DNA of 63,854 nucleotides, counting the filler, from a bacterium (GTDB lineage: Bacteria > JAJRZV01): NCBI GenBank assembly GCA_024275095.1. It is 7 parts of 7 records of this genome, joined end to end, with 100 filler letters (N's around TTAATTAATTAA, not from the genome) between each part and the next. Parts side by side here need not be neighbours in the genome. Positions count along the whole stretch, not along the records: positions 34,709 to 41,401 come from JAJRZV010000058.1; 6 more parts are not named here. One strand, written 5' to 3'. Positions 1,759 through 62,759 of this stretch are shown here, piece after piece. Position numbers and translations under genes: made by a program. Within the stretch, counting starts at the first letter, position 1; every line of letters starts with the position of its first letter. Below the pieces are notes generated by a model. The model saw nothing but the letters and a program-made list of their open reading frames with translations, was not told the DNA's origin and did not search any database.

Positions 1759-3171
1759 TCATACATCAAAATAAAGAACAAATTCGTAGGGGTGAGTTCT
1801 CAGCTTCACCTGATCAATTTCGTTCTCCTTCTTCCATTCAATCCAGGTATCAATGAGCTCATCGGTAAACACGCCGCCTTTGAGCAAAAACTCTCTGTCC
1901 TCACTCAATGCCTCGAGCGCCTCTTCCAGTGATGCAGGGGTGGAAGGCACGGCTGCCACTTCTTCAGGCGGCAGGGCGTATATATCTTTGTCAAGCGGTT
2001 CTCCCGGATCCAGTTTGTTCTCGATACCGTCCAGACCCGCCATGAGAATGGCTGAAAATGCAAGGTACGGGTTGGCAGTGGGATCAGGGAACCTCACCTC
2101 CACTCGTTTGGCCTTGGGCGAGGGAGAGTACATGGGCACGCGCACGGCTGCCGAACGGTTGCGGGAAGAATAAGCGAGTTTTACCGGTGCCTCGTAACCA
2201 GGAACAAGACGGCGATAAGAATTGGTTGTGGGATTGGTAAAAGCGCAAATAGCCTTTGCGTGCTTGAGAACACCAGCAATGAAATGCAGTGCAAGGTCAG
2301 AAAGTCCTGCGTACTTGTCACCGGCAAACAGAGGTTGCCCATCCTTCCACAATGACGTGTGCGTATGCATACCGGAGCCATTGTCTGCGAATACAGGCTT
2401 GGGCATGAAGGTGACGGTCTTGCCGTACTTGCGTGCTACATTGCGGAGCACATACTTGAAGGTCATCAAATTATCGGCCTGCTTGAGAAGGGGAGCATAT
2501 CGGATATCAATTTCACCCTGACCGGCTGTGGCCACTTCGTGGTGATGATATTCCACCTGAATGCCAATGCTCATGAGCACATGACCCATTTCATTTCGCA
2601 GGTCGGTGTAAGTGTCATGGGGAGGCACCGGGAAATACCCTCTTTTATATGGAATCTTGTACGCGAGATTGGGATTCTCTTCAGCACCGGTACGCCACCA
2701 GGCCTCATGGCTGTCCACCCTGAAAAAAGCCTCGTGGTTCTGGTAATCAAAGCGCACATCGTCAAATATGAAAAATTCCGCCTCAGGACCAAAGTAAGCA
2801 GTGTCAGCAATACCTGTGGATTTGAGATAGTTCTCTGCCTTGTGGGCAACAAAACGGGGGTCCTTGCTGTAATTTTCGCGCGTAACAGGGTCCACGACAT
2901 CGCAGATAAGCGTCAGTGTCTTCCTCTCAAAGAATGGGTCAATGAAAGCTGTTGCAGGATCAGGGAGCACGCTCATGTCTGACATGTTGATTGCCTGCCA
3001 CGCTCTGATGGATGAACCGTCAAACCCGATACCCTCTTCAAAAGATTCTTCCGTGAGTTCGGACACCGGGATGGTAAAATGATGCCACTGGCTGAACAGG
3101 TCTGCGAACTTCAAATCAACCCATTCAACCTTTTCATCTTCAACAAGTTTCAACACGTCCTTTGCATCCAT
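1759..3171 (-). CDS. glnA: Type I glutamine synthetase (GSI-beta), downstream copy
   Basis: [39 protein letters not shown], adenylylation-loop Tyr [22 protein letters not shown]. Confidence 0.97.
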
Positions 3172-3256
3172 GATTGCACCTCCTTTTGTAATTCTTTTGT
3201 AATTCTTTCCACTTTTTTATATGAAACCCGGCGGCGACCCAGCCGGAGATTCTTTC

Positions 3257-4578: not shown

Positions 4579-5994
4579 TTAAATATCAAAGTACAGAACA
4601 AACTCCGCTGGATGGGGCCTGAGCCTCACGTAATCGATCTCCGAACTTCTCTTGTAATTAATCCAGGTTTCAATAAGGTCTTCAGTAAAAACATCTCCTC
4701 GCATGAGATATTCGTGATCTTTCTCCAGCGCATTAATCGCCTCTTCCAGGGAGGTGGGTGTGGATTTGATGCGCATCTGTTCTTCAGGAGGAAGTTCATA
4801 AAGATTTTTGTCTATGGGCGGTGGAGGCTCGATCTTGTTAATAATCCCGTCAATTCCGGCCATAAGCATGGCTGCAAATGCAAGATAGGGATTGCTGGAA
4901 GGGTCAGGAGAGCGAAATTCAATTCTCTTGGCCTTTTCACTTTCAGAATACATTGGAATGCGAATACAGGCGCTACGATTGCGCTGAGAGTAGATAAGGT
5001 TTACCGGCGCTTCATACCCCGGCACCAGCCTTTTGTAAGAATTCGTGGTGGGAGCACAGAAGGCAAGCACACTGGCGGCATGGTACAGAATACCACCTAT
5101 GTAGTAAATGGCGATCTGGCTGAGTCCTGCATATCCTCCTCGGTCAAAGAACAGGTTTCTCCCCCCTTTCCAGAGACTCTGATGCACATGCATTCCAGAA
5201 CCATTATCAGCAAATACAGGCTTGGGCATAAAAGTAACGGTTTTTCCATACCGTCGGGCGACATTTTTGACGACGTACTTGTACTTGACCAGGTTATCAG
5301 CTGTCTTCACCAGAGGCCCGAATTTAATATCAATTTCCGCCTGGCCGCCTGTTGCAACCTCGTGATGGTGCACCTCTGCTTCCACGCCCACACTTAACAA
5401 CACCTTGACCATTTCTGAACGCACGTCGTGCAGGTGATCAACAGGCTGGTCCGGAAAATACCCCTCTTTGAATCGCGGTTTGTAACCGAGATTGGGATTT
5501 TCTTCCTTTCCTGAGTTCCAGAAGCCCTCTTCAGAATCCAGGAAATAAAACCCGTGGTTATAGCTCTGGGAATACCGAACATCGTCAAAAATAAAAAACT
5601 CTGCTTCTGGACCAAAATAGGCAGTATCGGCGATTCCCGAGCGAAGGAGAAAACGTTCTGCCTTTTGTGCTACATGTCGCGGATCCCGGGAATACAACTC
5701 TTTGGTGATAGGGTCCTTCACATTACAGATGAAGCTCAACGTAACATCTTTGGGAAAAGGATCCAGAAACGCTGTGTTCATATCGGGCTTCAGCACCATA
5801 TCACTCTCGTGAATGGCCTGAAATCCACGAATGGATGAGCCATCAAATCCCACCCCTTCAGTGAACAATTCTTCAGAAAGCTCCCTGATCGGCATTGTGA
5901 AATGCTGGAGCGTTCCTGGAAGGTCAGTAAATTTAAGGTCGATAAACTGCACATTCCTGTCAGATACGAGCCTTTTAAGTTCCCGAAAATTCAT
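4579..5994 (-). CDS. glnA: Type I glutamine synthetase (GSI-beta), upstream copy
   Basis: [57 protein letters not shown] 5994 behind AGGAGG. Confidence 0.97.
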
Positions 5995-6021
5995 GGGCAC
6001 CAACCTCCTGAAAAATGAATA

Positions 6022-6561: not shown

Positions 6562-6661
6562 NNNNNNNNNNNNNNNNNNNNNNNNNNNNNNNNNNNNNNN
6601 NNNNNTTAATTAATTAANNNNNNNNNNNNNNNNNNNNNNNNNNNNNNNNNNNNNNNNNNNN
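6562..6661. other. Artificial contig linker
   Basis: N-run + TTAATTAATTAA + N-run, 100 nt. Confidence 0.99.
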
Positions 6662-14907: not shown

Positions 14908-15007
14908 NNNNNNNNNNNNNNNNNNNNNNNNNNNNNNNNNNNNNNNNNNNNTTAATTAATTAANNNNNNNNNNNNNNNNNNNNNNNNNNNNNNNNNNNNN
15001 NNNNNNN
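14908..15007. other. Artificial contig linker
   Basis: N-run + TTAATTAATTAA + N-run. Confidence 0.99.
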
Positions 15008-20914: not shown

Positions 20915-21014
20915 NNNNNNNNNNNNNNNNNNNNNNNNNNNNNNNNNNNNNNNNNNNNTTAATTAATTAANNNNNNNNNNNNNNNNNNNNNNNNNNNNNN
21001 NNNNNNNNNNNNNN
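20915..21014. other. Artificial contig linker
   Basis: N-run + TTAATTAATTAA + N-run. Confidence 0.99.
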
Positions 21015-21321
21015 AGGGAATCTGATCAAGAAGATTTTTAAATATAAAAAATTCAATTGAAATGCCGCGTGCAACCATAATAAAATAAGAAAAAACAAAA
21101 AGTGTTGCAAACGACTGCATTTGATTTATATGTATAGACAAAACATAAACTCAGAACATAGTGATATAAATTAATAGAGAAAACATAAATGCTCAACAAA
21201 CAAAAAATAAAGAAAACCGTAAATAATAAAACAAAAAGCCAAAAAAACAGCTGCTGTGGGCAGTCAATAATTTTGTCAAAAACACAAGAATGGCCATTCA
21301 AATTACCAGGGGTGCTTCCTG

Positions 21322-23793
21322 ATGCATCAAACAAGCAATAAATTCACCTTTATATTGTTCATCTTTATTATATCTATTGCATTTGTCACCAGAATAAAAT
21401 ACATGTCACCCATACCCACTGGACACGATGAAATCTATTATGCAAAAATGGCGGAAAAGCCGGGCAATTTATTCGGCTACCGACTGCAATATGAGATAAA
21501 TAAAACAAAAATTAGACCAATATATCCTCCTGGATACCCGTTCTTTATCTATTTAGTATCAAAAATATCCCCTGATGAAAAGATTGCTCCCACTCTTACA
21601 TCTTGTATTTTTGGAGCACTATCCTGTGGTATTGTATTTTTAATTTTAAATTTAATTACAGGCACTTACTTTGCTGTGTTAGGAGCAATTTTAATCAGTT
21701 TCAATCCATTTTTTATAGATCTAAGTTGTAGAGCATACTCGGAAACAACAATGCTACTTTTTATTTCAACCTCTCTCCTTCTAACTTTATTGGCAATTCA
21801 CAAAAATAAATCTTTGTTTTTTCATGCATCTTTCATCATGGCAATCATCGCAGTCGGTATACACGCAGGAGAAGTGTTATATCTAATGTCGTTATTTATA
21901 TTCGGGTTATCTCACAAAAGATTAAGAAAGATTTTAATCATTTATGCCATGCTCTCTGCACCTTTTGTAATATTTTTCTTGTTTACCAAAACAAACTACT
22001 GGTGGCAGGGAGGGCTCAATCTAACAAATTTAACCAAAGCACTTTTACAGTTTATTGAGTCTGTAATAATCATACCCTCAAAAATATTTGCTAAAAACGG
22101 GATTCTTATGTATTCACAACATCCGGGAGTCGTAGCTTACCTGCTATTTCTCTTATCCGGCCAGGCAAAAATTGGAGAAACAGTAACCTTTCCCATGGCC
22201 TTTTTCCCATTAGTTTTACCAACAGCCGTTATCGGAGGATATGTATTCTGTATAAAAAACAAACAGAACTTAAATACATTATCACGTGAATTTATCAAGA
22301 TTATATTTACAATCTTTGTAGTATATCTGCTCGCGCGAGCTTCCCAATATTACAGAACAGCAAGATATATTTTTCCGGTGGTTGTATTCGGGTTGGCTGT
22401 AATTCCTGTATTGCTAAAAATGGCCAACGTAAAAAAACTATTATCCACAACTCTCATCTTTTACATAACACTTATACCTTTATACATATCTAAAGATTTT
22501 TTGTCTCTTCCAAAAGTTCACGCCCAACTTCTTATGAAAGAAATGGCAATTCTGGACAGAATTTTGGATAAGGACGTTCTTATAATAACATCTCGACCAC
22601 AGACAGTTGAAATGTACCTTAAGCGGAAGTATTTATATATAAACTGGTATAAAATATTTGAGAAGAAATATGATGAAAACTTAAAAAAATTTAAAAAGGT
22701 ATACTTGTTAGAAGATGCGAATGACATAAAAATTAAAGCAAAACAAAGGCTGTATTATCCACTCAAAAGTAAGTATAAAATTTTACCCCTTGAAAAGATA
22801 GGACAATTTAAACTCAGTATATTAGCAATCGACAAATCATCTATTGAATTCTCTATCGGAAAAACAAACGTAAAAGTTCCTTTAGCAATAAAGGTTGCAT
22901 CAGGAGGCTGGATTGCCGGCAACAGATGCGAAATTTCTGTCAATGCCAGTGATAATCTTGTCGTGGAGATAAAAAGAGGAATAAACCTGGTCGCAATTGA
23001 ACCTGACGGTAAAATTATATACAGGGGGAATTTCGATACCTGGATTGATAAAAAAGAAGGATTAAAATTTGCAGAATTTGTAAACAGCTTAACCGATGGG
23101 ATAGTAGTGGCCCTTTGTGTGGCCGATGAAGCATCAAAAAATTTGACAGAACGTGGACAAGAGGCATTATACAAACTCGGAGGACAGTTACCCTTAATAA
23201 AAGCTTTTAGATACAGTTACGCTCTTATAGGAATAAAAGGTGCTGAAAAGGGTACTGCACTTGAAGCAATGTCTTTGTTCAAACAGGTTGTTCTGAAAAA
23301 CTACCTGCCCCAGAAATTTGCACCGGAGAGAAAAACAATCACGCACGTGGAAGTCGCATCCGGCGGCTGGAAAGCGGGAAATTTCTGTTATATTACCATC
23401 AACTACGGCTTCAACCTCGCTTTTGGAAAGCGCGGCGTAAACATCGTTGCATTTGATACCAGGAACGGAAAAATATTTGCAAGGCGTGCTTTCGACACGT
23501 GGCTGGACAAAAAAGAAGGTCTTGCACTTGCAGATTTCGTCAACTCTCTCACAAAGGGCACAGGCGTGGCCATATGCGTTCAGGACGAAGCCTCGAGAAA
23601 CCTTACGGAAAAAGGTCAGGAAGCACTTTACTCACTCGGGGCAACGTTCCCTCTCATCAAATCGTTCCAGTACAGCTACGCACTCATTGGAATTAAGGGA
23701 GCAGGCAAGGGCACTGCATTTGAATGCTGGAGCAAATCACAGAAAGTTCTCCTCACAAGTGAAGGTGAATGCAAGCCCTTCAATCTCAAATAG
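21322..23793 (+). CDS. GT-C (GT39/PMT-like) membrane glycosyltransferase with two C-terminal ILEI/PANDER-like domains
   Basis: TM1 then DEIYY, YPPGYP, YSET, RYIFP; tandem repeats RG(I/V)N.VA..FDTW..ADEAS/QDEAS..YSYALIGIKG. Confidence 0.8.
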   Translation: MHQTSNKFTFILFIFIISIAFVTRIKYMSPIPTGHDEIYYAKMAEKPGNLFGYRLQYEINKTKIRPIYPPGYPFFIYLVSKISPDEKIAPTLTSCIFGALSCGIVFLILNLITGTYFAVLGAILISFNPFFIDLSCRAYSETTMLLFISTSLLLTLLAIHKNKSLFFHASFIMAIIAVGIHAGEVLYLMSLFIFGLSHKRLRKILIIYAMLSAPFVIFFLFTKTNYWWQGGLNLTNLTKALLQFIESVIIIPSKIFAKNGILMYSQHPGVVAYLLFLLSGQAKIGETVTFPMAFFPLVLPTAVIGGYVFCIKNKQNLNTLSREFIKIIFTIFVVYLLARASQYYRTARYIFPVVVFGLAVIPVLLKMANVKKLLSTTLIFYITLIPLYISKDFLSLPKVHAQLLMKEMAILDRILDKDVLIITSRPQTVEMYLKRKYLYINWYKIFEKKYDENLKKFKKVYLLEDANDIKIKAKQRLYYPLKSKYKILPLEKIGQFKLSILAIDKSSIEFSIGKTNVKVPLAIKVASGGWIAGNRCEISVNASDNLVVEIKRGINLVAIEPDGKIIYRGNFDTWIDKKEGLKFAEFVNSLTDGIVVALCVADEASKNLTERGQEALYKLGGQLPLIKAFRYSYALIGIKGAEKGTALEAMSLFKQVVLKNYLPQKFAPERKTITHVEVASGGWKAGNFCYITINYGFNLAFGKRGVNIVAFDTRNGKIFARRAFDTWLDKKEGLALADFVNSLTKGTGVAICVQDEASRNLTEKGQEALYSLGATFPLIKSFQYSYALIGIKGAGKGTAFECWSKSQKVLLTSEGECKPFNLK

Positions 23794-34608: not shown

Positions 34609-34708
34609 NNNNNNNNNNNNNNNNNNNNNNNNNNNNNNNNNNNNNNNNNNNNTTAATTAATTAANNNNNNNNNNNNNNNNNNNNNNNNNNNNNNNNNNNN
34701 NNNNNNNN
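34609..34708. other. Artificial contig linker
   Basis: N-run + TTAATTAATTAA + N-run. Confidence 0.99.
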
Positions 34709-34871: not shown

Positions 34872-36320
34872 TTACTGCACGTAGAGATAAATAACAACTC
34901 CCCTGTTAATTCCGTCAACCTTCCTCCACTCTCTCAAAACAATGCCGAAATTACCCTGAGGGTCACGTTTAATCTGTGGATACATCCCGGTAAACTCCAC
35001 GTCATCGGGATTATCAGGTTCGTAAATCACGCCAACCTTCCAACCACCTTCTGGTAACTTCACGGCAGCCTTTACCTGTTTATTCCACATGTCCCGGTAA
35101 ACAATAAAAGGTCTTCTATCGCTTGTAAGAGCGATATCCACGCCTGCACCCACTGCATCTCCCTGAGCGCCGTCTACCACCTCTGTATGCCACCTGCCGC
35201 CCTTTTTATAAGCATATTTAAGGTCCCACGTGGTGTAATCAAAATATGCCACGTGTGGAATACCCTCGGGGTCCACGGCAATAGCACAAAAATACCCATC
35301 GTCATCCGGGCTCGACGTTGAATCCAGATAGGAAATACTGAAGGTGGTACCCGAGGGGTACAGATCATACTTGTCTTTGAGGATGCTGATACGGGCTCTA
35401 TCATACTGATAAAAATTCCAGTATTCACTGGTCACCTCTGAAGGAAAAGACGATCCGGGCAACCATGCATAAAGATAAGTATCCTCCTTTCGGCCTGATG
35501 AAGGTTTACTCAAATAAGCCACCAGCACGTCGGGCTCATTGACCTGCTTAAATTCAACTTCTTCTTCAATCCGTTGCCATTCGATAACCTCGTCGTAAAA
35601 TCTTCCCTGGGAATTCTTTGCAATGTACTTGGTATTTCCGTTGATGGCATCGTAATAAACAATGTGGGGACGATTGCTGAGGTCAACCGCCAGGTCACTG
35701 TTGTAAAGCTGTCCTGTGCTTCCCGCCTGCGTTGCTCCATAGTCAAGCAGTTTATCCTCATAAGAGAAATAATCTTCGCGAATCACCAGATAACGCAAGT
35801 TGTAATCATCAAGCTGAATGTAGGAGACATGTATCCACCCGTTAATACCATAAGCACAGGAGATAAACCCTGCTGCCCGATTTACCACTTTTCTGATAAT
35901 CCACTGACCGGTTTCCTTTATATAATATGCATGACGAATTTCGTACCCCGGAGACACGGCAGAGTAGATGATATGAGGATTGCCCTGGTCATCCACCACG
36001 ATACACGGATACGCTCCTACATTTCCGTGAGCGTCCACTATGCTCGTACTCCACGGCCCCTGTGGACCCGTACCTGGTGGCAAAGTGGCATACATAAGAT
36101 TCAAGCCGGTGAAATTAAAAAAAGCGAGGTGAGGAATACCCGTATTATCGTAATCCAGTGATACAAAATATCCTGCGTCATCTGTCAGAGGCTGCGTCAC
36201 GTCATAAGCCACAGCAGCATAACCCGCGAAACTGAAAGTTCTCACACCACTTCTGCCACAGCCTGCAGCGGCTACAACTGCCATCACCAGAAAAAACAGC
36301 CAACCGCTTACTCCTTTCAT
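34872..36320 (-). CDS. Lipoprotein with beta-propeller repeats
   Basis: Lipobox AAGC; repeats such as D..G.PH(I/L/V).Y..LKYA..W..E.VD; start coupled to upstream stop (TGATG). Confidence 0.75.
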   Translation of the reverse strand: MKGVSGWLFFLVMAVVAAAGCGRSGVRTFSFAGYAAVAYDVTQPLTDDAGYFVSLDYDNTGIPHLAFFNFTGLNLMYATLPPGTGPQGPWSTSIVDAHGNVGAYPCIVVDDQGNPHIIYSAVSPGYEIRHAYYIKETGQWIIRKVVNRAAGFISCAYGINGWIHVSYIQLDDYNLRYLVIREDYFSYEDKLLDYGATQAGSTGQLYNSDLAVDLSNRPHIVYYDAINGNTKYIAKNSQGRFYDEVIEWQRIEEEVEFKQVNEPDVLVAYLSKPSSGRKEDTYLYAWLPGSSFPSEVTSEYWNFYQYDRARISILKDKYDLYPSGTTFSISYLDSTSSPDDDGYFCAIAVDPEGIPHVAYFDYTTWDLKYAYKKGGRWHTEVVDGAQGDAVGAGVDIALTSDRRPFIVYRDMWNKQVKAAVKLPEGGWKVGVIYEPDNPDDVEFTGMYPQIKRDPQGNFGIVLREWRKVDGINRGVVIYLYVQ

Positions 36321-37900
36321 CAAAACACCCCGTAGTAAGGTATATAAATCAACCACATCCCCCACGTACCACCCAGACCGGCATGTCCCCCATAGATAGT
36401 AGCTCCTATGCCCATTCTATCTCCGTCAGGCATTTTGCGAATACAGGCGTTATATCCGGCAAAATCCAGACTCAGATAATTGGACACCATCCAGCCTGTG
36501 GGCATGCGGTGTGCAACAACAAGGTTACCATAGCGGCTCTCGTAAAAGGTCACTACCGGTTGCTCTAAGGAATCCAGTGCAATTGAATACCCACCTTCAG
36601 CAGATACATTTCCCATCGTGTAAGGTTTGTCCCACCATTTACCCGGCGTGTATGTGGAAAACAATGCCACTCGTGCATCCTTGTCTTCGTATACTGCATA
36701 AAGCCTGTTTGCTGAATCCGCCACCGCCCTGATAAAAGGTCCGTTACGTCTTTTCGAAACCACGTGCGTGTTAATGTAATCAATAGAATACACGTCCGTA
36801 GGAGAATATCCTCTTAAAATTTCGATTTTCTTGCCACCTGCATAAAAATTCCAGTCATCCGGGGAAAGCGGTTGGGCATTGCGGTACACAACCGTCCTGT
36901 CCTTGTCCTGAAGTGCTCGACCTTTCAGGGTGCCGATATACCGCGTTACGGGGTTGTTGTTTGAATCGGTCATGCTCACCGGCTCTACAAGCACAATCTC
37001 TCCTGTTACATACGACCACTCGAGTGCTTCATACTTCCACTCATCAGCACCACGGACTTTAAAAGCGTGTTCGGCTCTTTCATTGGATGGATTGTAGTAA
37101 AAAATATGAACCACTTCTTCCCCGTCTTCAAAAGTGGTGAGGATATCTATACTGAGAGGCATACCGGAAGTAAGAGCTCTCTCCACATCTTTTACTGTCT
37201 TTTTGTTTTTAACACTCACACTGGCCACCTTTTCTTTTACCACCTCCGGGCCAACGACAATTTGATTAAAAATATCAATTTCCATGTACATCACATTGTA
37301 AAACACGAAATCCCCTTCCTGCTGTCCTTCGAAAAAAGCAATGCCTACGTTTCGGTCGCTTAAAAGCACGGTAGCGATACCATATCCCACATCTCCAAAA
37401 GTGCCAATATCAGCGCTATCCCTGATAACCGAAATGCGCCACACCTGTCCCTCTGCACTTCTTGCAACCTTGAGACGGGTCTGCACAATTACACCTGTCT
37501 TTTCTTCTCTGTATACAATTATTCTTTCAAGAGACACCGGATCATATAAAATTTTGGAATACAAACCTTCTCTCTCGTTAAGCTCTCCTTCGTCCACGAT
37601 TTCAACCTGCCACTCACCGCTATCCACCAACCTGGCATACTTGAGTTTAGAAACCACCTCCCCGCCCGTCTTTTCCATGTACGAAAAATGGGGAAAACCC
37701 CGGTCATCAATGACCATGTCCATGTAATATCCCACGTCAGCACTGTTATCCACGATACGCGTTTCAGGAGGGTTTTGGATGAAACTCACAAGGCCCGTTT
37801 TGCCACATCCCGTAACGACAAACACAAAAATCATACTGAGCAATTTTCTTTTTATTTTCTGAAGGAACATTTTTTCGCCTTTCATCCCTGCCCGTTTCAT
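36320..37900 (-). CDS. Lipoprotein with beta-propeller repeats, paralogue-like
   Basis: Lipobox VTGC; DDRGFPHFSY..LKYA..WQVEIVD and related repeats. Confidence 0.75.
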   Translation of the reverse strand: MKRAGMKGEKMFLQKIKRKLLSMIFVFVVTGCGKTGLVSFIQNPPETRIVDNSADVGYYMDMVIDDRGFPHFSYMEKTGGEVVSKLKYARLVDSGEWQVEIVDEGELNEREGLYSKILYDPVSLERIIVYREEKTGVIVQTRLKVARSAEGQVWRISVIRDSADIGTFGDVGYGIATVLLSDRNVGIAFFEGQQEGDFVFYNVMYMEIDIFNQIVVGPEVVKEKVASVSVKNKKTVKDVERALTSGMPLSIDILTTFEDGEEVVHIFYYNPSNERAEHAFKVRGADEWKYEALEWSYVTGEIVLVEPVSMTDSNNNPVTRYIGTLKGRALQDKDRTVVYRNAQPLSPDDWNFYAGGKKIEILRGYSPTDVYSIDYINTHVVSKRRNGPFIRAVADSANRLYAVYEDKDARVALFSTYTPGKWWDKPYTMGNVSAEGGYSIALDSLEQPVVTFYESRYGNLVVAHRMPTGWMVSNYLSLDFAGYNACIRKMPDGDRMGIGATIYGGHAGLGGTWGMWLIYIPYYGVF

Positions 37901-38024: not shown

Positions 38025-38059
38025 AAAAAATAAAACGGGCGCCCTCTTCAGGCGCCCGT
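38025..38059 (-). terminator. Rho-independent terminator
   Basis: 9-bp stem ACGGGCGCC/GGCGCCCGT, 7-nt loop, then TTTATTTTTT on the minus strand. Confidence 0.85.
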
Positions 38060-38084
38060 CTCCTTTACATCACCTCATCAACCT

Positions 38085-38128: not shown

Positions 38129-41100
38129 TTACTGACTTCTCCTCCTTCTGATGAGGGCAACATATGCACCTGTTACAATAAGGAGCATGAACGCAACTGT
38201 AGCGGTAGCTCCGTTATTCTTTGCAGTAGCGCAACCAAAAGCTGACATCGAATCATCTGTAATCACTGTGAACTTGTGAGAGATTTCGGTTTCGTTGCCC
38301 ACATCGTCAATGGCTCTTACTCTCAGCACGTGAATTCCCTCATCGAGCCCGGAAACAGAGATGTAACGGGAGGAAGAGAACTCGGACCACTCACTATCAT
38401 CAAGCTTGTAGGATATCTTCACAAGCTCATCCGGGGCCTGATAATCCTTGGCATACACTGCGAACACTGCGCTTGAACCTTCTACCTTGTCAGGTGCATT
38501 GAGAAGAACTAGGCGTGGACCTACACTGTCAACACGGACTTTTACGTATACAGGCGTGGGCTCCATCATGTTCCCGTCATCCAGTGCCTGAATTCCAATT
38601 ACATGTGTTCCTTCAAGAAGACCCTTGAGCCTGAGTTCTCCTGTGTTGGTGTGCGACCAGATTGTCCACAGACCACCATCCACGCTGTAAGAAAACATCA
38701 TGCGATCCATAGGAGTGGAGTCATCTATTACAGAGAGCCCGATGCGTACTTCATCACCCGTTGGGTGGTCGGACACATACGTAACTACAGTTTCGGGTGG
38801 GAGGTTGGAAGGAACGTAAGAGTAAACAGGAACGGGTTTTACCGGCGCCCGCGCAGGAGGTGAACCCAGAAGGCCACTTAGAGCATTAAGGCCACCGCCC
38901 TCTCCACCTTGAAAGACAGAGGTCAAGTCCGTACCGCTCAGGTCTTTTAAAAGAGAAATTATATCCTCAAACCCAAGTGTTCCGATCATGCGGATATACA
39001 CCTCAAAATAATCTCCCCAGGCATCCTGCGGGTAAGTCGGAGGTCTGGCATATGCAGTCACACGCGTTAGATAGTTGTCGCAGTAACCCGCCGCATTGCT
39101 ACAGGTAAGGTCCTCACCCCGGTAAGCGGGATCTGTCAAGGTATAAGGCCACAGGCTCATGTCCGTACGCGGCCCGATGTAAGGAATGATGATACCGAAA
39201 GGTGCCTTGAGGAGGTAACCAATGTCCAGAGCAATGCTGGCTTTAAGCTCAATCATTCCATCGAGAAGTACCGGCAACAGGTTGCCCAGAATGTTCTCCA
39301 GGCGTGAGAGTTCCGCAGGTGTCGGATTCGCATTGTTCGCAGGATTGTAGTTAATCGGGTCACGCCTGAACGCCTGGGCATAACGGATAAACCAGTTGAT
39401 GTTGGGATCAACAAAGGCTCTAAAATCTATAATAATTGAGGAAGTATAGTTATAGGTAATGCCGTCTGAGAAAGTGTACCGCAACACGTTATGCGGATCA
39501 TCAGCCTCAATGGTGAACGGGTTGGGATAACAGGCAATATTATCAGGATTGTTGTAATTCCACCTGAACACATCCTCGTTATAATTGGAGTAGGTGGGAT
39601 CACCAGCGGTACCCACATCTGGATAGTCAGGTAGCGGCGGCGGCTGAGTGATGGGATCGTAACTCACTCCACCTGTGCTTGGATTGTAAATGGGGCACGG
39701 GCGCATCTCTATATCAATACCCACGCGAGCACCCATATCCAGACCGAACACCCTCATCCACCTGGCATCATCCTTGGACCAGACCCAGAAGCCCAGCTCC
39801 AAATGGGGAATCTCTATTGTCATATCAGCTGCAGGGTTCTGATACACCCAGTTCTGAGTGTCGGGATCCGAAGGATACGGAGTCGGCACACTCGGGGTGG
39901 CCCACAACTCGTCAATCGACACCCTGCCGCCCGTGTAGAACCTGGGAGTATCAATCACTGCCGGTTCCGTAACCGGCCATGGACTGACCTTAGGGCCAAA
40001 AGCATAGTCTTCAGATCGTGGATTGTAAAACCACGGCCTGGTTTCAATGGCCATCGGAGCTCCTGGAAACGCATCAGCCAGCTCCGGCATGAGAAACGCG
40101 AAGGTGTCCGTGGTGAGCATACTGCCTACCATGTCCCCCAGTGTGGGGGTATCTTCATTAATCCACAAACAGAGCACTCCGCTACGCGCCACGTCGTAAA
40201 TCAAACGGCTCAGCGGGTTCATGTGAATCGCAAGACCGATGTAATACGACACTGCGCTGTGCCACCTTCCACCTGACCAGCCCCACGGGGTCTTGGACCA
40301 GGAAAGCGGGGTCGGATACGGAGGACTCATGCTCTGATTAAAAATTTCATCTCCCGTGGGCAGATGCGTGAGCATGCCAACCACAGGACCGTACTCCTGG
40401 GTGGCCACCGGACAGATGGTCCCGGTCATGCCCCAGAAATAATAGAACTGTGTATTACGATTCACATACGAAGTAATCTCCGCACCATTTTCATCCACGT
40501 GGATAACATCAAGACCAAACTGGAGCGGCATTACCACACCAAAGGAATCGGCAAAAAAGTCGTAATCATACACATTTTCTCCCGTTGCATGGTTCGTAAT
40601 GTACTCCTGATAACTCTGCAACCCCACGTCAATGGTGATCCAAGTGGGCGGGTCATTGAGCGGGTGCTGGAACGTAAGGCTACCGAGGAAATCTCCCAGG
40701 TCAATGATGGGTGAGGGACCGAAGTAATATGTAATGGGTGACGTAAATGCATCCACAGCCACATAGATTATGTCAGCAGAAATGTACTGAATAATCCTGT
40801 CAATATCCTGCGTGAGTTCATACGCGGGATCTGCTGAGGTGACATACTGCGTGTAAAAGTCCACGGTGGCATTGGCTTCCACCCTCAAGTTCTGCAGGTC
40901 GATGCCAATGGTGCGTACGTGCTTGGTGAGATCATTGGAAAAGTCATCGTACTCTGCAATCACGCGCATACCCAGCTCGAGCAGCAGGCGGTCGAGGGAT
41001 ACACGCACAACAGCACGGACGTATCTGGAAGCATCTGTTGCAGGATTATAATAGGAGATGGGAATTTGAATTTCTCCGGTTCCGCACTCGTCATCAATGT

Positions 41101-41401
41101 CCGGGTCGGACGTTGCTGGAGTACAGTAATCGGTGACTGTTCCCCCAAACGAGGTGGCTCTCGGACGCCAGTCAAGAAGCACGTCAATGATGGGATTGTT
41201 TATCTGGAGTTTAAACTGCAGGCTGTCGTCATGAGTGTGGGGCCAGTAATCGCATGCGATGGTCGCATCCACGAATCCATCACCGTCACGGTCAATTTTA
41301 TATTCTTCACATTTGGTACCAATGTCTGATTCAAGTTGCACGCTCACGTCGTCAGGGTTCCAGTAAATTACACGGCTGATCGTTGGGAGGGTAGCGGAGG
41401 C
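38129..41401 (-). CDS. Large surface protein with BPI/LBP-like segment, two Ig-like repeats and MYXO-CTERM-like anchor (5' end cut by gap)
   Basis: Frame open to the gap; SYSVDGGLW / SYKLDDSEW..G.H...V.A.D..GN repeats; C-terminal GC..hydrophobic helix..RRRR. Confidence 0.8.
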   Translation of the reverse strand, partial: ASATLPTISRVIYWNPDDVSVQLESDIGTKCEEYKIDRDGDGFVDATIACDYWPHTHDDSLQFKLQINNPIIDVLLDWRPRATSFGGTVTDYCTPATSDPDIDDECGTGEIQIPISYYNPATDASRYVRAVVRVSLDRLLLELGMRVIAEYDDFSNDLTKHVRTIGIDLQNLRVEANATVDFYTQYVTSADPAYELTQDIDRIIQYISADIIYVAVDAFTSPITYYFGPSPIIDLGDFLGSLTFQHPLNDPPTWITIDVGLQSYQEYITNHATGENVYDYDFFADSFGVVMPLQFGLDVIHVDENGAEITSYVNRNTQFYYFWGMTGTICPVATQEYGPVVGMLTHLPTGDEIFNQSMSPPYPTPLSWSKTPWGWSGGRWHSAVSYYIGLAIHMNPLSRLIYDVARSGVLCLWINEDTPTLGDMVGSMLTTDTFAFLMPELADAFPGAPMAIETRPWFYNPRSEDYAFGPKVSPWPVTEPAVIDTPRFYTGGRVSIDELWATPSVPTPYPSDPDTQNWVYQNPAADMTIEIPHLELGFWVWSKDDARWMRVFGLDMGARVGIDIEMRPCPIYNPSTGGVSYDPITQPPPLPDYPDVGTAGDPTYSNYNEDVFRWNYNNPDNIACYPNPFTIEADDPHNVLRYTFSDGITYNYTSSIIIDFRAFVDPNINWFIRYAQAFRRDPINYNPANNANPTPAELSRLENILGNLLPVLLDGMIELKASIALDIGYLLKAPFGIIIPYIGPRTDMSLWPYTLTDPAYRGEDLTCSNAAGYCDNYLTRVTAYARPPTYPQDAWGDYFEVYIRMIGTLGFEDIISLLKDLSGTDLTSVFQGGEGGGLNALSGLLGSPPARAPVKPVPVYSYVPSNLPPETVVTYVSDHPTGDEVRIGLSVIDDSTPMDRMMFSYSVDGGLWTIWSHTNTGELRLKGLLEGTHVIGIQALDDGNMMEPTPVYVKVRVDSVGPRLVLLNAPDKVEGSSAVFAVYAKDYQAPDELVKISYKLDDSEWSEFSSSRYISVSGLDEGIHVLRVRAIDDVGNETEISHKFTVITDDSMSAFGCATAKNNGATATVAFMLLIVTGAYVALIRRRRSQ

Positions 41402-41501
41402 NNNNNNNNNNNNNNNNNNNNNNNNNNNNNNNNNNNNNNNNNNNNTTAATTAATTAANNNNNNNNNNNNNNNNNNNNNNNNNNNNNNNNNNNNNNNNNNN
41501 N
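41402..41501. other. Artificial contig linker
   Basis: N-run + TTAATTAATTAA + N-run. Confidence 0.99.
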
Positions 41502-42211: not shown

Positions 42212-45200
42212 TTAACCGGAATAAAAAACTTCCGCACTGTATTCCTTTTTAAATCGTTCAATTAATGACTCGCTGAAAGATACTCCAAATTCATCAGGAA
42301 GTGCCAAAACAGCCTCAAAACCCGAGGGGTAACGCAGGTACAGGAAAACCTTTATTCGCCCTTTGTGTTCCATAAGGATACCCCTTACTTTTTCAACATC
42401 ATCTTCAGAAAGCCCCACCGTATTGATTCGTATGTGTACACTCTTTGCAAACCGTCTGCGGGCTTCGTTAAAAGGGTAAACCTCCAGAGCCACGATTCTT
42501 GCTTTTCCCTCTGTATGGCTGTCAACCCGGCCCTTTATAATCAACACCTGATCTTCTATCTTTTCAGGGAGTTTTTTCAACGTATCCTCAAACATAAATA
42601 CCTCAACAAAACCCGTTACATCTTCCAGTATCAAGGATCCGACGGGTGTCCCCTTTTTGGACTTGCGCGATGCAAATCCGGTAGCAATACCTGCAACGAT
42701 AACCTCTTCAGAACGCACACGGCCGTGAGACAACTCATCTGCGGTAGTAGTAATGTACGGCCTGATTTTTCGCCACTGCTTTTCCAGAGGATGGCTGGAC
42801 ACGTAAAAACCCGTAACTTCCTTTTCATACTTGAGTAATACAGGCTCGGGCCATTCTTCCATTTCGGGTATTTCAACACGGGGCTTCACGCTGTCCGGTG
42901 AAAACATGCTTATCTGGTGCTGGTTCGTGTGTCCGCGGCTGAAAACCTCCACAATATGATCCAGAGCGGCCATCATCTGTGCTCTTTTATAGCCGCTGAA
43001 ATCAAAAGCACCTGCTTTAATCAAACTCTCCAGCACTCTCTTGTTCACCTTTCGGGAGTCCACACGAGAAGCAAAATCGACAATATCTTTGAATTCTCCC
43101 TCTTCTCTACACCGCAGAATTTCCTCTACAGCATTAAATCCTACATTCTTGATACCGGCAAGGCCGAACCGTATGGCATCTCCCTCAACAGTAAACCGAT
43201 CGAGAGAGCGATTCACATCCGGCGGCAAGATGCGTATACCCATTTCACGGGCAGCATTGAGATACTTTACTATATCGTCTGGTCTGTTAAAGGACGCATT
43301 CATGAGGGCGGCAAAATACTCCACTGGATAGTGGGCCTTCAAATAGGCTGTGATGTAAGCAAGGTAACCGTAAGCAGCACTGTGAGATTTGTTGAAACAG
43401 TACTCAGCGAACTTGCGAATGTTGTCAAACAACTCCTGAACTTTCTGACGCGGGAACCCGTTCTTCACCCCTCCCTCAACAAATTTTTCTTACAGTTCTT
43501 CCATCTTCTCACGCACCTTCTTACCCATGGCATACCTGAGCGTATCGGCTTCACTCATTGTGAATCCTGCTATTACCCGTGCGATCTCCATTACCTGTTC
43601 CTGGTACACGATCACCCCATACGTTTCTTCCAGCACGCTTTTAAGCGCTGGAAGTTCATAAGTGATCCTTTTGCGTCCGTGTCTGCGCTGAATAAAATCG
43701 TCCACCATTCCCGTCTCCAGCGGGCCCGGACGAAACAGTGCAACCGTGGCAATAAGATCAGAAAGCTTCTGAGGCTTCAGACGCCGCACCACCTCTGTCA
43801 TTCCCGGATTGGACAGCTGAAACACACCCTGTGTCTGACCCTCGGAAAGCATTTTGTAGGTAGCTGCGTCATCGAGCGGAATATCCTTTATATTGACGTC
43901 CTTTCCTCGATTCTTTTTCACCAGCTCAACGGTCTCGTAAATTGCGGTAACAGTATCGAGAGCCAGCAGGTCCAGCTTTACGTAACCGAGCCTGTCCACC
44001 ACATCCTTATCAAATTGTGTTGTCGGCACATTGCCTTTTCCTGCAAAAACCGGTAGTGATTCAATAACGGGTTCGGGGGTAATCACCAGCCCACCCGGAT
44101 GTGTTCCTGCCTGACGTACAACCCCCTCTATTCTCATCGCCACATCCACCATCTCCCTCATTTTTTTATCCTTGCGGTAAAGCTCTTTCAAGGGACCGGA
44201 CATTTCCAGAGCTTCCTTCAGGCTCTTCACACGTTCAGGGATCATTTTGGCGATTTTCTCCGTGTCACCAGTACTCACGCCATAGGCACGGCACACATCC
44301 CTGAGGGCCTGCTTCGCTCTCATGGTCTGAAATGTACCCACAAACGCAACGTGGTCTTCACCGTATCTTTTTCTCACGTACTCAATTACTTCATTGCGCC
44401 GTTCTTTACATACATCCACGTCAATGTCAGGGAGGGTCACCCTGTCGGGATTGAGGAACCTTTCAAAAAGCAAGCCATACTTGATTGGGTCTATATCCGT
44501 AATCCTCAGCGCGTACGAGACCAGGCTCCCGGCAGCAGAACCCCTGCCAGGCCCCACCGGTATACCGTTGTTTTTTGCAAAATTGACAATATCGGCAACA
44601 ATAAGAAAGTACTCGGCAAAACCCAGCTTGTTAATCATTTCAAGCTCGTGATTCAACCGGTCCACATAAACCTTCTCATCCGGCTTCCCCCCTGCTTCCT
44701 TCATTTCATCAAGTCGCTTTTTGAGACCTTCACGTGCTGTCTGACTCAAATACTCAGCAAGCGATAATTGCCCGGGAACCTCAAAGCGTGGAAAGTGTGG
44801 CTTGCCAAACTCGATTTCTACATTACACATTTCCGCAATTTCCAGCGTATTGGCAAGTGCCCTTTCTATGTGGCCGAAATGGGCTTCCATTTCCTCCGGC
44901 GATTTAAAATAAAATTCCTGGGATTTAAACCTGAAACGGTTTTCATCAGTAAGTTTATTGCCGGTTTGAATGCACAAGAGCACCTCGTGCACACTCGCAT
45001 CTTCCCGGTACAGGTAGTGCACGTCCGCGGTAGCAACGAGTTTAATATTCATACGTCTCGCCAGATCGAGGAGCCCTTCGTTAACAATACGCTGCTCTTC
45101 TATTCCATTTTCCATAAGTTCAAGATAAAACCTGTCCCTGCCGAAAAGAGACAGGTAAAATTCTGCTATTTCCTCCGCTTTCTTCTGGTCCCCTCTGAGC

Positions 45201-45652
45201 AGATAGTAAGGGATCTCCCCGTGCAAACATGCAGAACAGGCAATAAGTCCCCGGCTGTGCTGCTGGAGCAATTCTTTATCTATGCGGGGTTTATAATAAA
45301 AACCTTCTGTAAAGGCACAGGACGAAAGCTTTTGTAGATTTTTAAGGCCGATATTATCAACGGCCAGGAGTAAAAGATGAAAAGCGTAGCCTTCCACTTT
45401 TGATTCCCTTTTTTTCTCCTTTCGGCTTCCTGGAGCAACATAGGCTTCCATTCCTATAATAGGCTTGATGCCATGACGAGACATTTCTTCGTAAAAGGGG
45501 ATTATTCCGTGCAAATTGCCATGATCGGTCAAAGCCACAGAATTCATGTTAAACTTCTTAACCATCGGGGCGAGTTCATTAAACCGGATGAATCCGTCCA
45601 GCATGCTGTACTGACTGTGAAGGTGCAGGTGAACAAATGCTTTCTTGCCCAT
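42212..45652 (-). CDS. dnaE: DNA polymerase III alpha subunit; one in-frame TAA at 43490-43492
   Basis: PHP HLHLHSQYSMLDG, GRGSAAGS, FERFLNP, PDIDVD, YQEQVM; KMEEL*EKFVEG continues in frame to FNKSHSAAY, HhH and OB domains. Confidence 0.96.
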
Positions 45653-62659: not shown

Positions 62660-62759
62660 NNNNNNNNNNNNNNNNNNNNNNNNNNNNNNNNNNNNNNNNN
62701 NNNTTAATTAATTAANNNNNNNNNNNNNNNNNNNNNNNNNNNNNNNNNNNNNNNNNNNN
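62660..62759. other. Artificial contig linker
   Basis: N-run + TTAATTAATTAA + N-run. Confidence 0.99.

Follow-up and report, generated by a model that had tools for sequence, protein, structure and literature searches.

A giant bacterial protein with a probably BPI-like core, a Cys-helix-Arg sorting tail and a co-occurring repeat lipoprotein

Double TULIP proteins of the BPI type have long been regarded as eukaryotic innate-immunity and plasma lipid carriers. To judge from the accessible text of the relevant papers, bacterial TULIPs have been under discussion since 2017–2019, and the BPI-type double TULIPs among them are only now being characterised: the preprint on TipA (Bd2538) of Bdellovibrio bacteriovorus describes a BPI-like double TULIP with a solved structure and an adapter, TipB, and also mentions double TULIPs from bacteria that have beta-rich domains joined to them (10.1101/2025.09.09.675085). 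Here, we describe a gene on the minus strand at positions 38129–41401 of a stretch of 63,854 nucleotides (the window), which consists of seven contigs of the draft assembly GCA_024275095.1 (bacterial lineage JAJRZV01). On balance, we find it probable that the product of this gene is a cell-surface, lipid-anchored double-TULIP lipid binder, with lipid binding, cleavage, lipidation and surface location all predicted. A first-pass annotation of the window had likened the protein to human BPI and had taken BPI/LBP proteins to be eukaryotic; the latter statement is outdated, since bacterial BPI-like proteins exist, namely TipA and the Pfam-passing proteins described below. With bacterial BPI-like double TULIPs already in print in the TipA preprint, the giant tailed form is what is new, and no account of such a family was found in literature searches on bacterial TULIP/BPI-like proteins, the supplements and figures of that preprint aside. 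The family adds a giant, probably surface-anchored form, of which a genome of 2.45 Mb carries at least three copies.

Compared with human BPI (1BP1/1EWF), LBP (4M4D) and CETP (2OBD), the window protein is bacterial, about three times larger and interrupted by large insertions, and it adds two immunoglobulin (Ig)-like domains and a membrane-sorting tail. Those carriers are covered by PF01273 and PF02886, whereas the window protein has no Pfam match of its own and an N-terminal domain that is undetectable by sequence. Like TipA, with which it was compared by description only, it appears to be a bacterial, secreted, divergent double TULIP encoded beside a partner gene. However, TipA is described as a soluble protein of about 570 residues without a sorting tail, partnered by a small C2-like sandwich, whereas the window protein has about 1346 residues and a tail, and the family partner is a lipoprotein of about 500 residues. 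TipA did not appear in the PDB sequence or Foldseek searches. Other bacterial TULIPs (P47/OrfX2, YceB, DUF4403 and DUF2140; Levine 2019, PMC6791001) belong to the same superfamily but, as described in the accessible text of that paper, are small, soluble or periplasmic; the Foldseek search gave no significant match to them, P47 (5wix) standing at rank 15 with E 0.47.

Coordinates below are those of the joined stretch, and residues are numbered along the 1090-residue frame found in the window (P0001). The whole assembly comprises 2.45 Mb in 136 contigs and is 97% complete. Linkers of the form N44-TTAATTAATTAA-N44 separate the seven contigs (6562–6661, 14908–15007, 20915–21014, 34609–34708, 41402–41501 and 62660–62759), and adjacency across them is artificial. 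Translation gave a single open frame of 1090 codons plus stop on the minus strand at 38129–41401, the 3′ part of the gene; the frame is open at 41401 because the contig ends there. This contig (34709–41401) holds three minus-strand genes, that is, the family gene and two lipoprotein genes, and an intrinsic-terminator-like hairpin followed by a U run lies 67 nucleotides past the stop codon of the family gene (38032–38062, minus strand; 13-bp stem, −24.8 kcal/mol, z −5.4, with none of 200 shuffles folding equally well). Recovery of the N-terminus, proposed in the first-pass annotation as a check, was achieved by a whole-assembly search with the one close homolog (P0002, 1330 residues, 56–60% identity, aligned from its residue 257), which located the missing gene start on another contig (C119). 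The piece found there (G000:C119:6445-7552) has 369 codons, an open 3′ end and a signal-peptide-like start; its last 340 nucleotides are 99.4% identical to the first 340 of the window gene, and the 113 shared residues are identical. The overlap and these identical residues therefore indicate one gene of about 1346 codons that was split by the assembler, and the complete protein is about 1346 residues long with a predicted signal peptide.

The C-terminal lobe of the core (38867–40279, minus strand, residues 375–845) is like the C-terminal domain of BPI/LBP/CETP, with large Pro/Tyr-rich insertions. The motifs on which the earlier comparison with BPI had been based are present, namely YYIGLAIHMNPLSRLIYDVARSGVLCLWI (residues 386–414, window 40160–40246), LTTDTFAFLMPELADAFPGAPMAI (residues 429–452, window 40046–40117), LELGFWV (39782–39802) and VFGLDM (39734–39751), as are the insertions (30–33% Pro plus Tyr at residues 561–620 and 841–880). 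These motifs lie in the most conserved block of the family, residues 383–575 (window 39677–40255). A family-only profile of the C-lobe, built from 15 proteins (A7), was aligned with a profile of five bacterial proteins, each above the PF02886 gathering cut-off of 23 bits (A8; four from a PF02886 search of 401 genomes and a fifth from a related genome), and hhalign gave a probability of 98.8% and E 4.3e-17 over 142 columns. Searched against 177,635 PDB sequences, A8 in turn matched BPI at 3e-9 and LBP at 4.1e-7. Because these two matches chain together, the first ~140 residues of the C-lobe, a stretch that comprises the helix and the strands after it with LELGFWV and VFGLDM, are homologous, on the evidence of profile alignment, to the beginning of the C-terminal domain of BPI/LBP.

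Additional matches point the same way with unequal force. A core-only profile (A2) matched a single bacterial protein above the PF02886 cut-off (L040, 886 residues) with a probability of 97.5% and E 7e-12, on the same residues matched by Pfam; this protein shares the layout of the family, with an Ig-like domain and a Cys-helix-Arg tail. BPI was the top match of A2 in the PDB (E 0.034), and the full-length profile (A1) reached BPI at E 0.24. Mixed-group profiles gave 1.8e-5 and 2e-6 against BPI, a signal that stems from the certified members. PF02886 matched 4 of 22 relatives below its threshold (12–16.9 bits, always at profile positions 35–102), and the genome's own paralog likewise scored 15.6 bits, below the cut-off. 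The top cluster obtained from the ESM Atlas was bacterial, with a score of 0.91, a total of 174 shared features and PF02886 in 57% of the members.

Residues 1–860 were modelled with AlphaFold2 from a 22-sequence alignment. The confidence of the model was low (mean predicted local distance difference test score, pLDDT, 55.7; predicted template modelling score, pTM, 0.44), with 240 residues at pLDDT ≥ 70 and more than half of the model below 60; the confident parts are long paired strands (128–183, 527–568 and 655–673) and helices (394–406 and 695–713). The N-terminal lobe as modelled, of which the window contains the distal two thirds (40277–41401, minus strand, residues 1–375), shows very long beta-hairpins (strands 128–151 and 162–183). 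The structural check suggested in the first-pass annotation, Foldseek run here against 350,542 PDB chains, returned exactly five matches at E ≤ 0.001 with this low-confidence model, and these were BPI (1ewf, 7.0e-6; 1bp1, 7.4e-6), CETP (1.6e-4) and LBP (1.8e-4 and 9.0e-4), each aligned over ~500 columns; the next-best match had E 0.14. Global superposition was poor (TM-scores 0.08–0.22, root-mean-square deviation 20–26 Å), and VIA-align, applied to the Foldseek list, paired model residues 1–808 with BPI 52–456. A model without a TULIP barrel, named in the first-pass annotation as the refuting outcome, was not obtained, within the limits of the low model confidence. The model suggests a two-lobed BPI-like arrangement, for which the support is real and short of proof. 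The earlier claim of a BPI-like fold is supported for the C-lobe, by profile–profile homology and by Foldseek, and probably holds for the whole core, the N-lobe being without sequence support.

Downstream of the core, the two Ig-like repeats announced in the first-pass annotation were found at 38534–38818 (residues 862–956) and 38246–38533 (residues 957–1052), both on the minus strand. They form an internal repeat that aligns over 80 residues with 29% identity (E 8e-9) and are of the Y_Y_Y/Big_13/OmpL47-barrel kind; in the second repeat, Y_Y_Y (residues 992–1045, 20.1 bits versus a cut-off of 26.6) and the OmpL47-type barrel (994–1045, 36.1 bits versus 40) matched below their cut-offs. More than 1000 database matches are reached via the region of the first repeat. 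The protein ends in a tripartite sorting tail (38132–38245, minus strand), which agrees with the GC-transmembrane-RRRR tail previously noted: Cys1057 of the FGC motif (38231–38233) in the context SAFGC(1057)ATAKNNG, with seven residues between FGC and a 20-residue hydrophobic helix (38150–38209), and then RRRRSQ (38132–38149). The Cys-transmembrane-basic arrangement was seen in all 24 listed family proteins and in all 16 distinct complete family frames from the loci; GC occurs in all 24 of the former (aromatic-GC in 17) and in 15 of the latter. A regular-expression scan of the source genome returned about six Cys-tail proteins.

On C119, the gene order is mutS, directly followed by a 220-residue Rce1-like membrane protease and, after a gap of 163 nucleotides that holds a promoter-like site, by the family gene. 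The protease is single-copy in the genome and scored 102.1 and 104.3 bits on NF040914 Mrt_core (cut-off 100). According to the text available from the preprint on few-client sorting systems, such systems tend to place the enzyme beside its client (Haft preprint, 10.1101/2023.06.07.544157), and the adjacency of the protease, together with the small number of Cys-tail proteins, fits this pattern. Among the 401 phylogenetically spread genomes, Mrt_core was found at E ≤ 1e-15 in 42, comprising 9 of the 13 genomes that hold the family and 33 of the 388 others, counts to which no statistic was attached since related genomes are not independent. With regard to export, the source genome encodes GspG, three secretins and two full-length Lgt genes (G000:C7:28865-29599 and G000:C44:1572-2318); Lgt copy number was 1–4 in five other family holders and followed no pattern. 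One genome family (f85), judged to be Calescibacterium-type from GspG that is 100% or nearly identical, contributes three loci in which the family gene is immediately followed by GspG and a second pseudopilin.

Two described sorting systems are closest to this arrangement. As in the MYXO-CTERM/myxosortase MrtX system (TraA of Myxococcus xanthus; PMC11980579, as far as its text was available), there is an invariant Cys, a hydrophobic helix, an Arg cluster and an Mrt_core-family protease in the genome. However, the window tail has aromatic-Gly-Cys with a single Cys where MYXO-CTERM has GCGC, it stays below the cut-offs of TIGR03901 and TIGR03382, and its host does not belong to the Myxococcota. 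As in the few-client JDVT system, the enzyme adjoins its client, but JDVT-CTERM proteins, the clients of MrtJ, are described in the accessible part of that preprint (10.1101/2023.06.07.544157) as carrying a nearly invariant Asp-Pro in the helix, which the window tail lacks. The NF033191 scores follow suit, being 12.5 bits for P0002 versus a cut-off of 27 and below the cut-off in the 5 of 22 relatives that matched at all. Among the same relatives, TIGR03901 matched two and TIGR03382 one, none above its cut-off. Taken together, the tail and the adjacent Mrt_core-family protease make anchoring through a myxosortase-type tail plausible, and the tail would extend the myxosortase system past the lineages and models described for it.

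Concerning the distribution of the family, which the first-pass annotation had also recommended for examination, the core-only profile found it in 13 of the 401 genomes, with 1–4 copies each in frames of ~500–1700 residues; two of the 13 (G291 and G318) are weak matches in the helix region only. The source genome, which is the sole member of its phylum in the collection and shares only the domain level with the other 400, carries three copies: the window gene, a paralog on contig C118 and a 5′-truncated copy on C55 (G000:C55:1-2253, L046). An exhaustive HMMER search returned 1138 proteins at E ≤ 0.001, nearly all via the Ig-like region, and 23 of 153 retrieved proteins, 800–1500 residues long, match residues 1–860 as well; word-index homolog searches added almost no further members. 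Every complete member combines a signal peptide with the core, Ig-like domains and a C-terminus of the Cys-hydrophobic-basic type. Among named records, the family occurs in Candidatus Calescibacterium and in unclassified metagenome-assembled genomes. As a separate observation, the source genome encodes a 940-residue protein (G000:C86:3381-6203, L043) that shares these Ig-like domains and has a GGGCGC tail, while its N-terminal part has no family match.

The two genes that lie past the terminator-like hairpin encode paralogous repeat lipoproteins, both on the minus strand: lipoprotein 1 (36320–37900, 526 residues, lipobox VTGC), a member of a repeat-containing partner family, and lipoprotein 2 (34872–36365, 497 residues, lipobox AAGC), the best-conserved member of that family. 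In 7 of 15 other family loci, from five genomes, related genes come immediately after the family gene in the same orientation; pseudopilins take their place in 3 of the 15, and the remaining 5 have neither, one of these being cut by a contig end and two belonging to distant family members. At the level of single repeats, the lipoprotein profile matched 51 of the 401 genomes, and full-length matches (E ≤ 1e-30) were limited to 10, all of which lie among the 13 holders of the family. By genome content, this co-occurrence is the strongest functional association found, and it gives the family a phylogenetically tight lipoprotein partner. Against the PDB, the partner-lipoprotein profile returned noise only (E ≥ 0.02). 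Searches for the protease and both lipoproteins gave no matches in a smaller set of 8 loci. An extra large same-strand gene (900–1300 residues) follows the partner lipoprotein in six loci (L072, L075, L076, L077, L079 and L080), and a large same-strand gene directly follows the family gene in L083; a lipobox is present in several of these genes, and a helix-Arg tail in two. The operon may have a third conserved component.

A scheme that accommodates these observations would be as follows. The ~1346-residue protein would be exported by Sec, and its whole core would be a much-expanded double-TULIP module, with two elongated helix-in-sheet lobes enclosing lipid acyl chains and the two Ig-like domains serving as a stalk. 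The FGC-helix-RRRR tail would keep the precursor in the inner membrane until the invariant Cys is lipidated, after which the adjacent glutamic intramembrane protease of the myxosortase family would cut off the helix. Transport of the lipid-anchored protein to the surface may then fall to the type II secretion system, as in the Myxococcus proposal for MYXO-CTERM proteins, which, in the available text, runs from Sec export through Cys lipidation and myxosortase cleavage to surface display by type II secretion (PMC11980579). At the surface, the protein would bind or transfer amphipathic envelope lipids, such as lipopolysaccharide (LPS)/lipid A, phospholipid or lipoprotein acyl chains, probably jointly with the repeat lipoprotein that co-occurs with the family and whose gene lies downstream. 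Should the lipid link prove true, the family would offer a way into outer-membrane lipid management in little-studied diderm phyla. For prey recognition, considered in the first-pass annotation beside lipid scavenging and membrane exchange, there was no pointer among the present findings.

Several results weigh against this scheme. P0001 had no Pfam BPI match at E ≤ 1, PF02886 included, and at E ≤ 10 the PDB search with A7 did not reach BPI, which leaves the direct link weak and makes the argument for homology a transitive one. In addition, only ~140 of the ~1100 residues of the core have a sequence tie to BPI. For the N-lobe, PF01273 gave no match in P0001, the N-terminal fragment or the relatives, and its genome-wide search missed all family genes; the N-lobe part of profile A5 scored 1.0 bit against BPI; N-lobe and C-lobe profiles showed no similarity to each other; and an ESM Atlas search gave weak leads only (0.79–0.84). 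The N-lobe model of a homolog reached a pLDDT of 43, too low to be usable, and none of its Foldseek matches had E ≤ 0.001; its best rows were CETP (E 0.064) and LBP (0.13) beside other TULIPs and CD1/MR1 chains. As to anchoring, which had been claimed on first reading and which the tail and the adjacent protease make plausible, the tail passed none of the curated CTERM models (12.1 bits on TIGR03382 versus a cut-off of 15.85). A strong Mrt match was missing in 4 of the 13 family holders (the two weak-match genomes and two that are 80% and 84% complete), and tblastn found Mrt beside the family gene in none of the 15 other loci, so that this arrangement was seen in the source genome only. Finally, a strong terminator stands between the family gene and the lipoprotein genes.

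The alternative that survives best, although we judge it unlikely, is a trans-envelope lipid bridge, in which the helix would be kept as an inner-membrane anchor and the Ig stalk and TULIP tube would span the periplasm, passing lipids such as phospholipid or precursors of LPS on to the lipoprotein partner in the outer membrane. It is favoured by a tail that is a bona fide transmembrane helix with cytoplasmic RRRR and scores below all curated sorting-signal models, by the lipoprotein nature of the conserved partner and by the argument in the TipA preprint, as far as accessible, that long TULIP assemblies could span the periplasm (10.1101/2025.09.09.675085). The paralog on C118 (1081 residues, locus L037, G000:C118:743-12491) also speaks for it, as it does for the surface-anchored lipid binder, by adjoining late lipid A genes: it lies in one co-directional string with GH3 and is followed on the same strand, with an overlap of 8 nucleotides, by a 955-residue protein without known family and, further along, by DUF374, Kdo transferase, LpxK, lipid A acyltransferase and a PEMT/ICMT-like methyltransferase. 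LpxK, WaaA, LpxL and DUF374 were found by tblastn in none of the 15 other family loci, which weighs against the surface-anchored scheme, and the arrangement is therefore only a hint. A search for LptD with PF04453 found nothing in the source genome, 97% complete, which counts for a bridge, but PF04453 also misses several diderms used as controls, and the genome has an LptA-like gene together with the lipid A genes; for these reasons, the idea that LptD is absent was dropped. Moreover, the invariance of the motif Cys, the co-occurrence of the family with a myxosortase-type protease, the position of that protease next to the gene in the source genome and GspG after the family gene in three loci argue for cleavage and export rather than for a retained helix. 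As an aside, eukaryotic ICMT-type enzymes act after Rce1, and given this order, the presence of a PEMT/ICMT-like methyltransferase near a myxosortase client is curious.

We consider quite improbable the possibility that the protein is a surface adhesin or structural protein, with the BPI-like segment an ancient remnant that carries no lipid and with the Ig-like domains and Pro/Tyr insertions binding surfaces or cells. For about 85% of the core, no similarity to lipid carriers was detectable, pLDDT is below 60 in more than half of the model, and many MYXO-CTERM clients are adhesin-like according to the accessible text of PMC11980579, all of which this explanation would accommodate. However, the Foldseek and VIA alignments reach both BPI lobes with 300 aligned residues, and the most conserved block of the family is exactly the BPI-like helix and strands. 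A chance resemblance of an unrelated all-beta core, to which the low TM-scores, the low model confidence and the failure of A7 to find BPI in the PDB might point, is very improbable and already disfavoured, as independent lines of evidence meet on the same residues.

Returning to the surface-anchored lipid binder, a bolder extension of it is a long shot: in several deep-branching bacterial lineages, most of them uncultured, the family with its aromatic-Gly-Cys tail could combine with a dedicated subtype of myxosortase and the co-occurring repeat lipoprotein(s) into a machine, hitherto undescribed, for handling lipids at the outer surface. If so, the machine would transport lipids of the envelope, be it LPS or another kind, either at the outer membrane or through it, and would replace or complement the known routes of the Lpt or Mla type or else membrane exchange in the myxobacterial style; this would explain why one copy of the family lies inside a string of lipid A biosynthesis genes.

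Elsewhere in the window, a gene for DNA polymerase III alpha (42212–45652, minus strand) is split by a single in-frame TAA (43490–43492) that separates the finger domain from the HHH/OB part; an error in sequencing, a genuine split of the gene or recoding may each account for it. The contig at 21015–34608 encodes an 840-residue protein (21271–23790, plus strand) with a PMT_2 glycosyltransferase domain and two ILEI (interleukin-like EMT inducer) domains, EMT being the epithelial–mesenchymal transition, in a stretch of 38–39% G+C versus ~48% elsewhere. Two full-length glutamine synthetase genes (1762–3216 and 4582–6021, both on the minus strand) lie 1.3 kb apart, with an SPFH/Band 7 gene between them.

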